From Escherichia coli (GTDB taxonomy: Bacteria; Pseudomonadota; Gammaproteobacteria; Enterobacterales; Enterobacteriaceae): a stretch of 15,907 bases of DNA. The number at the start of each line of letters is the position of its first letter. Position 1 is the first letter of the stretch. The stretch is taken from the NCBI RefSeq assembly GCF_003334335.1, contig NZ_QOWQ01000058.1; one strand, 5' to 3'. The notes below the pieces were generated by a model. That model saw only the letters and a list, made by a program, of their open reading frames with translations. It did not search any database and was not told the DNA's origin. This document shows, piece after piece, positions 14,726 through 15,058 of this stretch. The position numbers were made by a program, and so were the translations under genes.

Positions 14726-15058
14726 TCAGGGTGCAGAAGGACTAAAGATAAACGTTTTCTTCACGCCTTTACACGGCCTGTCCTTCTCAAATCGCCATTT
14801 TGCCATCGCCTTTACAACCTGCTCATCAAACAAATGGTGCGGCTCTGAACGGATAAACTCAATTCGGGTGACAGTACCATCAGCACCAATATCAAACTTC
14901 ACATCAACCCGTCCCTTTATATAATTTGCCGCTGCATAGGCCGGATATTGTGGTAATGCCTTAACCAACTGTCGGGGCATATCTGTTTTATGTTGCGTAC
15001 AGCCCATAACCAGAGAAGACAACAAAATAATTAACGGAAGATTTCTTTTCATTTTCAT
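14726..15058 (-). CDS. Lipoprotein carrying a TonB C-terminal domain (signal peptide and lipobox followed by a TonB_C-like domain); about 110 aa
   Basis: Likely ATG at 15058 or 15052 (the ORF-track GTG at 15067 is less likely). MKMKRNLPLIILLSSLVMGC-TQ is a lipoprotein signal with lipobox VMGC and Thr at +2. Residues about 30 to 105 (PRQLVKALPQYPAYAAANYIKGRVDVKFDIGADGTVTRIEFIRSEPHHLFDEQVVKAMAKWRFE) align position by position with the E. coli TonB C-terminal domain as recalled. Region is AT-rich relative to flanking genes. Confidence 0.8.
   Translation of the reverse strand: MKMKRNLPLIILLSSLVMGCTQHKTDMPRQLVKALPQYPAYAAANYIKGRVDVKFDIGADGTVTRIEFIRSEPHHLFDEQVVKAMAKWRFEKDRPCKGVKKTFIFSPSAP

Follow-up and report, generated by a model that had tools for sequence, protein, structure and literature searches.

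A lipoprotein carrying a TonB C-terminal domain in the late region of an Escherichia coli lambdoid prophage, a candidate competitor for TonB boxes

The window, that is, the whole stretch of 15,907 nucleotides of Escherichia coli DNA analysed here, encodes on its minus strand a lipoprotein with a TonB C-terminal (TonB_C) domain (positions 14726..15052; 108 amino acids plus the stop codon). An earlier reading made from the letters alone (the sequence-only reading) had drawn this ORF from 14726 to 15058; the gene is indeed present on the minus strand, but the start at 15058 is not retained, and the ATG at 15052 (MKRNL...), giving a protein two residues shorter, is preferred. From the sequence, this ATG is most likely the start codon, because it is preceded at a 6-nt spacing by a Shine-Dalgarno-like CGGGA (15059..15063, minus), has an equivalent Met in the phage 21 homologue, and agrees with the RefSeq call of 327 bp; the alternative in-frame starts are the ATG at 15058 and a GTG at 15067 (minus). 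Phage 21 has AGGA at the position equivalent to CGGGA, and the RefSeq annotation of a prophage 98% identical to the window contains the same 327-bp CDS under the name 'TonB family protein'. The gene and its promoter are contained in an AT-rich island (14600..15200) with a GC content of 0.42 versus 0.56 for the whole window, flanked by Rz and Rz1 (15618–15907 and 15707–15892, both intact) on one side and by the HNH, TerS, and TerL genes (11475–14352) on the other, so that both the AT-rich island and the moron position described in the sequence-only reading are borne out. No Rfam family matched positions 13600–15907, and no exbBD genes were found in the window or in related loci.

The protein begins with a signal peptide, MKRNLPLIILLSSLVMG (15002..15052, minus), which is predicted to be a signal peptidase II substrate and is kept across the family. 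Briefly, a basic n-region and a hydrophobic core lead into the lipobox LVMGC (14999..15013, minus), in which MKRNLPLIILLSSLVMG is directly followed by Cys18 (codon 14999–15001) with Thr at position +2; LVMGC fits the PROSITE-type pattern and the lipobox consensus [LVI][ASTVIM][GAS]C. Each of the 14 aligned close family members of full length, with identities as low as 33%, has a lipobox, and across the family the +2 residue is Thr, Ser, or Ala, never Asp. According to the Lol +2 rule, the absence of Asp at this position directs a lipoprotein to the outer membrane. Because its +2 residue is Thr, the window protein is predicted to be sorted there. The Cys predicted to be acylated is linked to the folded domain by a tether of 7 residues (TQHKTDM; 14978..14998, minus), the corresponding length in the family being 7–16 residues. 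The inner-membrane anchor and the Pro-rich spacer of a TonB energy transducer are both missing, and the N-terminus consists instead of a predicted cleavable lipoprotein signal.

The remainder of the protein is a TonB C-terminal domain (residues 26–104, corresponding to residues 153–231 of E. coli TonB; 14741..14977, minus), as delimited by profiles, alignment, and an AF2 model. It matches Pfam TonB_C (PF03544) with an E-value of 1.6e-14 and TIGR01352 with 54.5 bits (cutoff, 27.1), whereas the PRK10819-type TonB equivalog models score 49–74 bits against cutoffs of 265–448, aligning only at the C-terminal ~80 residues. A phmmer comparison with TonB C-terminal domains in the PDB gave E-values of 4e-16 to 3e-15, and residues 153–235 of E. 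coli TonB align without a gap, with 31 of 83 residues identical (37%). The conserved residues are Pro161, Gln162, Tyr163, Pro164, Phe180, Gly186, Phe202, Trp213, and Phe230 (TonB numbering), and the YP motif, the aromatic core, and the β3 strand are all retained, the last, which in TonB pairs with TonB boxes, having the sequence KKTFIFS in place of VVNILFK. In the AF2 model, the domain has pLDDT values of 92–98, adopts the TonB-type fold of a three-stranded sheet and helices, and, by Foldseek, superposes on 1U07, 2GSK_B, and 2GRX_C with root-mean-squared deviations of 0.7–1.1 Å over 74–79 residues; fold matches in the PDB with E-values below 0.001 are exclusively to domains of TonB or TonB homologues, TolA domain III being a distant second. 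In view of the Pfam match, the PDB matches, and these small deviations, the TonB_C identity of the domain is secure. Thus, the architecture read from the letters, i.e., a lipoprotein signal with Thr at +2 (here a pattern match), no TonB anchor or spacer, and a domain aligning residue by residue with TonB, has withstood profile search, computed alignment, and superposition. Three TonB residues implicated in contacts with its partners are replaced (Gln160 by Leu, Arg166 by Tyr, and Arg158 by Lys), and therefore the specificity of the domain may have shifted from classical TonB boxes. When the mature protein was fused in AF2 through a 30-residue Gly/Ser linker to FhuA residues 1–20, the TonB box TITVTA became a β-strand (pLDDT, 71–79; pTM, 0.68) that was absent with a scrambled peptide (pTM, 0.58), although the discrimination is modest, the scrambled peptide reaching a pLDDT of 65–76, and the test is a weak one because the training data of AF2 included TonB–TonB box complexes.

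Upstream of the gene, an extended −10 element, TGTTAGAAT (15085..15093, minus), has homologous counterparts, TGTTAGTAT and TGATACTAT, in front of the genes of diverged relatives. It is invariant in the 79 IMG/VR copies having upstream sequence and is conserved in relatives of 44–46% identity. The promoter call is made from this conservation and not from a promoter scan, in which sites were no more numerous than in shuffled sequences; a convincing terminator was not found. Relatives at 41–46% identity, both chromosomal and in prophages, have near-perfect Fur boxes located 27–32 nt upstream of the start codon, just after the extended −10 element. The Fur 7-1-7 motif is matched at 14/14 positions in two prophage loci (L003 and L004), a Klebsiella sp. 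(L010), and an Enterobacter (L109), at 13/14 in Raoultella, at 12/14 in Pantoea, and at 11/14 in two further loci, L006 and L011, the latter with its site 59 nt upstream as the sole exception to the spacing; among 2000 random windows, at least 11 matches occurred in 0.75% and at least 13 in none. In the window, the place of the relatives' Fur box is taken by a perfect palindrome, AGAATAAGACTTATTCT (15073..15089, minus), overlapping the −10 element, which matches the Fur 19-mer at 13/19 positions (a score with a background rate of 4.7%) and the 7-1-7 motif at 9/14, scores that by themselves lie within the range of chance. Half of the Fur box is deleted in phage 21, and the box has been lost in several phage copies. 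The tonB gene and the receptor genes are themselves under Fur control. An alignment fold of the conserved block upstream of the gene gives one hairpin with compensatory changes, and the folding energy of the block is no better than that of shuffled sequences on either strand (z = −0.19 and +0.25).

The sequence-only reading had implied that the gene is unusual, whereas it is in fact common, being present in 1616 of 5426 complete E. coli genomes (about 30%), including ST131, O157 and other STEC, and the type strain, and also in phage 21 (72% identity). Among about 410 related phage records, only 15 contain it, and database names go no further than 'TonB family protein' or a fragment. Comparison with the phage 21 allele gives a dN/dS of 0.12 at a dS of 1.46, which is near saturation; the gene is under purifying selection. 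All 80 copies in IMG/VR are intact and differ only by conservative substitutions, a result that informs on intactness and not on diversity, since the scan of viral contigs returned only copies of 98–100% identity. Frameshifted phage-21-type alleles without β3 are also common (cluster P0012, 130 members), and the gene is therefore dispensable in some lineages. The order from spanin or lysis genes through the gene to terminase, on the same strand, recurs in four diverged lineages, namely those of the window, phage 21 (72%), the prophage loci L003 and L004 (P0035; 44–46%), and L014–16 (33–34%) together with a Klebsiella phage (40%). Having its own promoter, an atypical GC content, a position between modules, and a patchy distribution, the gene qualifies as a moron (autonomous accessory unit) located in the late region of its lambdoid prophage. 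Homologues outside prophages, with Fur boxes upstream, are found on chromosomes of Klebsiella, Raoultella, Enterobacter, and Pantoea; these show that the family is not phage-specific and may act constructively in iron physiology. No iron-uptake genes were seen beside the chromosomal copies.

In the prophage that matches the window at 98% identity along the full window length, there is also a gene for a TolA-domain-III lipoprotein (L017, 34856–35284; PGAP 'TolA'; phrog_5772), with a lipobox LTTGC, a Pfam TolA match of 8e-23, and a match to PDB entry 1S62 of 1.6e-25. Its gene is present in 895 of 5426 E. coli genomes and occupies a slot between Q/tRNAs and the lysis genes, and no Fur box was found at it. 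Neither this gene nor bor was found within 6 kb of the TonB_C gene in 80 IMG/VR loci, and hence the pairing is not general. In phage-21-type carriers, sitABCD, encoding a TonB-independent Fe/Mn importer, is located in the same prophage in all three cases examined, and it is possible that this importer serves as compensation.

We tentatively favor, at slightly less than an even chance, the view that the product of this moron, tethered to the outer membrane, competes for TonB boxes and gives protection from colicins and TonB-dependent phages. In this mechanism, the short tether would keep the TonB-type domain close to the periplasmic face of the membrane, where the domain would bind, by β-strand addition to β3, the TonB boxes of ligand-loaded FhuA, FepA, Cir, and BtuB; the TonB boxes of group B colicins threaded into the periplasm are possible further targets. 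Lacking an ExbB/ExbD-coupled anchor and spacer, the protein would be unable to transmit energy and, we propose, would therefore compete with TonB and damp TonB-dependent import. Periplasmic C-terminal fragments of TonB reportedly inhibit transport through FhuA and FecA, infection by phi80, and killing by colicin M. The lysogen, and also a cell late in lytic growth, would be shielded from TonB-dependent phages and from colicins and microcins. Expression would come from the gene's own extended −10 promoter and from read-through of the late operon, and under the ancestral Fur control of this promoter the protein would rise in step with the receptors. A role linked to TonB is supported by the Fur boxes of the relatives, the shared promoter of the family, the TolA-domain-III lipoprotein, and the strand formed in the AF2 fusion. 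Import of colicin B requires two TonB boxes, one on FepA and the other on the colicin itself (PMC8546555). In agreement with the sequence-only reading, which knew of no characterized phage protein of this architecture, our search of the full-text literature found no functional study of the TonB_C lipoprotein or of its TolA-type sibling.

A pure decoy role is hard to reconcile with the Fur-induced chromosomal homologues, which would inhibit iron uptake just when iron is scarce, unless protection outweighs the cost in iron uptake. In iron physiology, the protein may instead play a constructive or regulatory part, a reading that we consider unlikely, though not negligibly so: an outer-membrane TonB-like domain, induced through Fur, would aid TonB-dependent uptake by pre-docking on transporters, by holding the periplasmic binding proteins FhuD and BtuF near the outer membrane, by rationing scarce TonB among receptors, or by tuning FecA-type signalling, and the phage copy would be a fitness or virulence moron like sitABCD. 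The conservation of Fur boxes at the homologues outside phages and the co-carriage of sitABCD in phage-21-type carriers are in line with such a role, as is the fact that, in vitro, FhuD and BtuF are bound by the C-terminal domain of TonB. However, a domain without a link to the ExbBD motor cannot energize transport, the TonB C-terminal domain, when isolated in the periplasm, has been inhibitory and not helpful in experiments, the chromosomal copies are without iron-uptake neighbors, and the Fur box has gone from several phage copies.

Competition for TonB boxes would also differ in its target from a sequestration of TonB itself, in which the domain pairs through β3–β3 contacts with the C-terminal domain of TonB and holds TonB at the outer membrane, the outcome being likewise dominant-negative. 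This is improbable; the fold and the β3 strand match those of TonB, and TonB C-terminal fragments form dimers in crystals (1IHR and 1U07), but the β3 sequences differ and the physiological relevance of the C-terminal-domain dimers is debated. Quite improbable is an envelope or virulence lipoprotein comparable to Bor/Iss, with a ligand outside the TonB system such as peptidoglycan or a host factor. The replacement of the three partner-contact residues and the moron hot spot shared with bor/iss would fit such a protein, against which stand the relatives' Fur boxes, indicative of iron and TonB physiology, and the nearest structures, which are TonB domains only.

An accessory lysis protein or spanin is very improbable: the PHROG label 'Rz-like spanin' (phrog_1267; match, 5.7e-43) and the fact that, in several lineages, the gene comes after the spanin genes and on the late strand suggest it, but the spanin identity was rejected, since a separate, intact Rz/Rz1 pair is already present, the folded TonB_C domain resembles neither a Pro-rich o-spanin nor a u-spanin, for which a C-terminal hydrophobic membrane segment is absent, and homologues reside on chromosomes outside prophages; the label most likely goes back to the description of a lipoprotein beside the lysis genes. 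That the phage picked up a dead piece of host tonB, as might be suggested by the frameshifted alleles and by annotations such as 'TonB fragment' or 'partial tonB-like' (phages Perceval, ev017, and CP-933N), has a similarly slight probability and is effectively refuted by the data on selection and architecture, namely the low dN/dS, the intact IMG/VR copies, the conserved promoter, an identity to E. coli TonB that excludes a recent capture, and a lipoprotein signal gained and conserved across the family.

With competition for TonB boxes as the preferred reading, it is possible, although doubtful, that a broader scheme holds, in which outer-membrane-tethered C-terminal domains of both transducers (TonB_C and TolA III), carried by temperate phages of Enterobacterales and by some host chromosomes, jam the two import routes of colicins and many phages, the TonB type being ancestrally switched on through Fur together with receptor derepression and SitABCD offsetting the cost in phage-21-like prophages. 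If competition for TonB boxes is true, it would represent a new principle of exclusion, i.e., mimicry of the host energy transducer instead of the masking of one receptor, with a breadth covering all TonB-dependent receptors. Given its carriage by about 30% of sequenced E. coli genomes, the gene could shape sensitivity to TonB-dependent therapy phages and, in the gut, to colicins and microcins, and could affect siderophore-conjugated antibiotics (e.g., cefiderocol) that are taken up via the same transporters. With its TolA-domain sibling and the chromosomal relatives under Fur control, the idea lends itself to simple plating, colicin, and uptake assays.

Among known systems, the PADLOC defence models gave one insignificant match only (E = 0.022), no significant fold match was obtained among the BFVD viral structures, and the only PHROG families matched were phrog_1267, 34172, and 812, with no similarity to Cor or Llp. 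Lambda Bor and Iss are likewise small lipoprotein morons between the lysis genes and cos, but Bor is encoded on the opposite strand, has an unrelated fold, and functions in serum resistance. Llp of T5 and Cor of phi80, N15, and HK022 are superinfection-exclusion proteins, likewise small phage lipoproteins, in the inner leaflet of the outer membrane, that act periplasmically on the TonB-dependent transporter FhuA. Llp, an acylated outer-membrane lipoprotein, works from within the periplasm to block FhuA (bioRxiv 10.64898/2026.03.26.714494). The window protein is unrelated to Llp and Cor in sequence and fold, and whereas Llp is receptor-specific and acts allosterically on the FhuA plug, the TonB_C domain would be directed at the TonB box, which all such transporters share. 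The TolA-domain-III lipoprotein follows the same design, a lipobox joined to the C-terminal domain of the second energy transducer that spans the envelope, but differs in the domain itself, in the slot of its gene, and in having no Fur box. With the E. coli TonB C-terminal domain (residues ~150–239; 1U07 and 1XX3, and 2GRX with FhuA and 2GSK with BtuB), the window protein shares the fold, the YP motif, the aromatic core, and β3 at 37% identity, and differs in the missing anchor and spacer, the absence of exbBD nearby, the replaced contact residues, and its predicted lipid anchorage in the opposite, outer membrane. The engineered periplasmic TonB fragments place the same part of TonB in the periplasm without the energy-coupling part and are reportedly dominant-negative; the window protein, known here from its sequence, is by comparison a natural, diverged form, predicted to be lipid-anchored at the outer membrane and provided with its own promoter.

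The TonB_C lipoprotein gene is a single ORF located where the sequence-only reading had placed it, the only corrections being that it lies on the minus strand (14726–15052) and starts two codons further in. Among the three in-frame start codons (GTG 15067, ATG 15058, and ATG 15052), ATG 15052 is the best candidate, because a Shine-Dalgarno-like CGGGA lies 6 nt upstream, the phage 21 homologue has the same start, and RefSeq uses it. The product of 108 residues begins with a signal peptide, MKRNLPLIILLSSLVMG, followed by Cys18, and the proposed lipoprotein signal is borne out by the lipobox LVMGC (Thr at +2). 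Seven residues (TQHKTDM) tether Cys18 to the TonB_C domain, which aligns without gaps to residues 153–235 of E. coli TonB with 31/83 identities, in agreement with the residue-by-residue likeness noticed earlier. Pro161, Gln162, Tyr163, Pro164, Phe180, Gly186, Phe202, Trp213, and Phe230 of TonB are kept, and Gln160, Arg166, and Arg158 are replaced by Leu, Tyr, and Lys, respectively. Residue 94 (codon at 14771–14773) is polymorphic, with Cys in 43 and Arg in 37 of the 80 IMG/VR copies (RPCKG vs RPRKG); the window allele has an unpaired Cys94 in the loop preceding β3.

The domain assignment is secure. Two of the checks suggested with the original claim gave positive results, namely the profile search (Pfam TonB_C, E = 1.6e-14; TIGR01352, 54.5 bits, cutoff 27.1) and the structural superposition, in which the AF2 model (domain pLDDT, 92–98) superposed within 0.7–1.1 Å on 1U07, 2GSK chain B, and 2GRX chain C. 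Matches to solved TonB C-terminal domains had E-values of 4e-16 to 3e-15. The protein belongs to the TonB_C domain family. Its identification as TonB itself was rejected, as neither of the two defining features tested was found; full-length TonB equivalog models scored far under their cutoffs, with the alignment confined to the C-terminal ~80 residues.

Read on the minus strand, the window corresponds to the late part of a lambdoid prophage. Rz with embedded Rz1 (15618 to the window end, minus) is followed by ~560 bp that lack any convincing gene, the TonB_C lipoprotein gene, and a convergent YnfO/YlcI gene (DUF3950, phrog_949; 14394–14594, plus), which runs opposite to the late operon and is probably expressed from the prophage, like bor. 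The HNH endonuclease, TerS, and TerL come next, and then the capsid-protease fusion, portal, head-tail genes, major tail protein, and tape measure. The AT-rich location claimed between the lysis genes and the HNH/terminase block was reproduced, the patch with the gene and its leader having a GC content of 0.42 vs 0.56 for the window, with Rz/Rz1 on one side. Because the gene and the late operon have the same orientation, we infer that it is also transcribed late in lytic growth. Within the ~560 bp, a block of ~180–230 nt without convincing coding potential (~15165–15400, minus; also at ~2690–2900 of related locus L001 and in L149–L152) marks the junction of lysis genes and packaging module and is more conserved than neighboring genes. 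It is 97% identical to Lys8385Vzw and ~88% to phage 21, and recurs, mostly unannotated, at 74–97% in ~400 records of lambdoid, Stx, and Salmonella ES18 phages. The alignment fold has a 3' hairpin with compensatory changes in 5/7 pairs; Rfam gave no match for the block, and its folding energy was not better than that of shuffles (z = −0.19). Elsewhere, two adjacent minus-strand ORFs (6678–7901 and 7898–9262; 454 and 407 aa) overlap by ATGA and jointly span one 859-position PHROG portal profile (phrog_2271); RefSeq labels the matching gene in a 98%-identical prophage 'phage portal protein, frameshifted'. This may reflect a defective prophage or a normal two-gene arrangement.

A search of 1.84 billion representative proteins matched many TonB-domain proteins, among which a distinct set of 107–133 residues aligned over the full length including the signal peptide. 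All 14 of the closest full-length members have a lipobox, none with Asp at +2; two more distant short relatives (P0109 and P0138) have ordinary signal peptides and no lipobox. In a scan of one genome per species, full-length members occurred only in Enterobacterales (Raoultella, Enterobacter, Pantoea, and Erwinia), Klebsiella members being added by protein look-up. The prophage members match the window gene in slot and strand, the gene order being Rz-like gene, TonB_C lipoprotein, hypothetical gene, HNH, TerS, and TerL in L003/L004; holins, endolysin, Rz, small ORF, TonB_C lipoprotein, and lambda-type Nu1/A terminase in L014–16; and Rz/Rz1, bor (opposite strand), small ORF, TonB_C lipoprotein, and cos in phage 21. 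Klebsiella phage ST13-OXA48phi12.4 also has a member in this slot. The remaining members are single chromosomal genes amid housekeeping genes, with no phage or iron-uptake genes among their neighbors.

The gene is common, near-identical copies being present in 415 of 5426 complete E. coli genomes, or 1616 when the second allele, that of phage 21 (74% DNA and 72% protein identity to the window gene), is included. Carriers include O157, other STEC, ST131, and the type strain, and the labels are generic ('TonB family protein', 'TonB C-terminal domain protein', 'TonB fragment') or read 'partial tonB-like membrane protein ... CP-933N'. Among GenBank phages, only 15 records contain the gene and ~410 its flanking DNA, a patchy distribution that upholds the moron-like character proposed before. 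Between the two alleles, dN/dS is 0.12, with dS (1.46) near saturation, and 80/80 IMG/VR copies are intact with only conservative differences (e.g. K52R and C94R). Some phage-21-type alleles are frameshifted with loss of the last strand (P0012, 130 members), so the gene appears dispensable in some lineages. In the frameshifted clusters (P0012, P0013, P0017–P0019, and P0021), an additional base in the A-run of GAAAAG, or one A missing in GTGAAGAGA, replaces the last ~10–15 residues (β3 strand), which could represent pseudogenisation or sequencing/assembly error at short runs.

Diverged members have an upstream extended −10 element, TGTTAGTAT or TGATACTAT, directly followed by a 7-1-7-type Fur box, TGATAATnATTATCA. 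The 7-1-7 score is 14/14 in the prophages L003/L004, Klebsiella sp. (L010), and Enterobacter (L109), 13/14 in Raoultella (L101/L102) and a short metagenome contig with a Raoultella-like protein (L005), 12/14 in Pantoea, and 11/14 in loci L006 and L011, the box lying 27–32 nt from the start codon except in L011 (59 nt). In a background set of 2000 random 206-nt windows drawn from phage and E. coli DNA, at least 11 matches occurred in 0.75% and at least 13 in none. These boxes argue for ancestral control of the family by iron, of the kind that Fur exerts on tonB and the receptor genes; such regulation links the family to TonB physiology independently of domain homology. The window has a homologous extended −10, TGTTAGAAT (15085–15093), invariant in the IMG/VR copies, and we conclude from these elements that the gene probably has its own promoter. 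At the Fur-box position lies a perfect palindrome, AGAATAAGACTTATTCT, matching the Fur 19-mer at only 13/19, as do 4.7% of random windows; Fur control of this allele is possible. In phage 21, a 12-nt deletion has removed the right half of the box, and in the Klebsiella phage only a half-site is left.

The closest complete-genome match, E. coli SCU-104 (98% identity across all 15.9 kb), has in the matching prophage a further lipoprotein gene, located between Q antiterminator/tRNAs and lysis genes, which encodes a TolA-type protein (L017 34856–35284, minus; 142 aa; lipobox LTTGC, Thr at +2). Its C-terminal 90 residues correspond to TolA domain III (Pfam TolA, 8e-23; PDB 1S62, 1.6e-25; ~51% identity to E. 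coli TolA in this region). The gene is found in 895/5426 E. coli genomes and one phage record (mEp460_ev081), labeled 'TolA' by PGAP and 'unknown function' in PHROG 5772; it has no upstream Fur box, and the literature searched yielded no functional study. None of 80 IMG/VR loci had it within 6 kb of the TonB_C gene, showing that the two are not generally linked; as context, this gene fits the decoy theme. In the three prophages examined, the phage-21-type allele occurs with sitABCD: phage 21 (L098 8968–11001), ST131 strain CU568-3 (L153 2807–6256), and type strain ATCC 11775 (L154 3930–7379). The phage-21-like prophage adjoins icd, with sitABCD beyond the tail fibre genes, and the ST131 copy additionally has an OmpC-like porin and iss/bor. 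SitABCD is a TonB-independent Fe/Mn ABC importer, and one may speculate that it would compensate for a reduction in TonB-dependent uptake.

In TonB itself, the C-terminal domain takes up a transporter's TonB box as an additional strand beside β3 (2GRX and 2GSK), and both structures are among the top matches of the AF2 model. The 7-residue tether would keep the domain no more than a few nanometres from the outer membrane, where TonB boxes emerge; deprived of anchor and spacer, the domain could bind but not pull, so that competition with TonB is expected. C-terminal fragments of TonB in the periplasm reportedly have a dominant-negative effect on FhuA/FecA transport, phi80, and colicin M. In a rough check of compatibility, with FhuA residues 1–20 attached to the mature protein by a Gly/Ser linker of 30 residues, AF2 placed a strand exactly at the TonB box TITVTA (pLDDT, 71–79; pTM, 0.68), and a scrambled peptide was non-strand (pLDDT, 65–76; pTM, 0.58); we count this prediction as weak support for TonB-box binding, because the difference is modest and AF2 knows TonB complexes. 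Group B colicins require two TonB boxes, their own and that of the receptor (PMC8546555), and T5 Llp, an acylated lipoprotein in the inner leaflet of the outer membrane, inactivates FhuA from the periplasm (bioRxiv 10.64898/2026.03.26.714494). Competition for TonB boxes is our leading but tentative reading, falling slightly short of probable. A constructive role as helper or regulator of iron uptake is unlikely but a serious rival, because chromosomal homologues induced through Fur sit badly with a purely inhibitory role. Sequestration of TonB through its own C-terminal domain, which would give the same phenotype by another target, is improbable, and an envelope or virulence lipoprotein with an unrelated ligand is more doubtful still. 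The spanin reading, derived from the label 'Rz-like spanin' (lysis category) of phrog_1267 in PHROGs v4, was rejected as barely credible given the wrong architecture and the separate Rz/Rz1; the label is apparently a misannotation, which annotations of phage genomes will go on to inherit. A dead tonB fragment is hardly tenable in view of selection and the acquired lipobox and promoter.

Altogether, the original observation is confirmed and its interpretation as a dominant-negative decoy partly supported: a known domain appears in a new, conserved, phage-borne lipoprotein architecture, for which mimicry is a plausible mechanism. No paper on the protein was found in the literature searched, which does not prove it unstudied, and neither PADLOC models nor BFVD structures gave a match. 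The protein is of interest as abundant and cleanly defined, with iron control in relatives and a TolA-type sibling, and is accessible to standard assays. It showed no relationship to Cor or Llp; functionally, these exclusion lipoproteins and the engineered periplasmic TonB fragments are its nearest counterparts.
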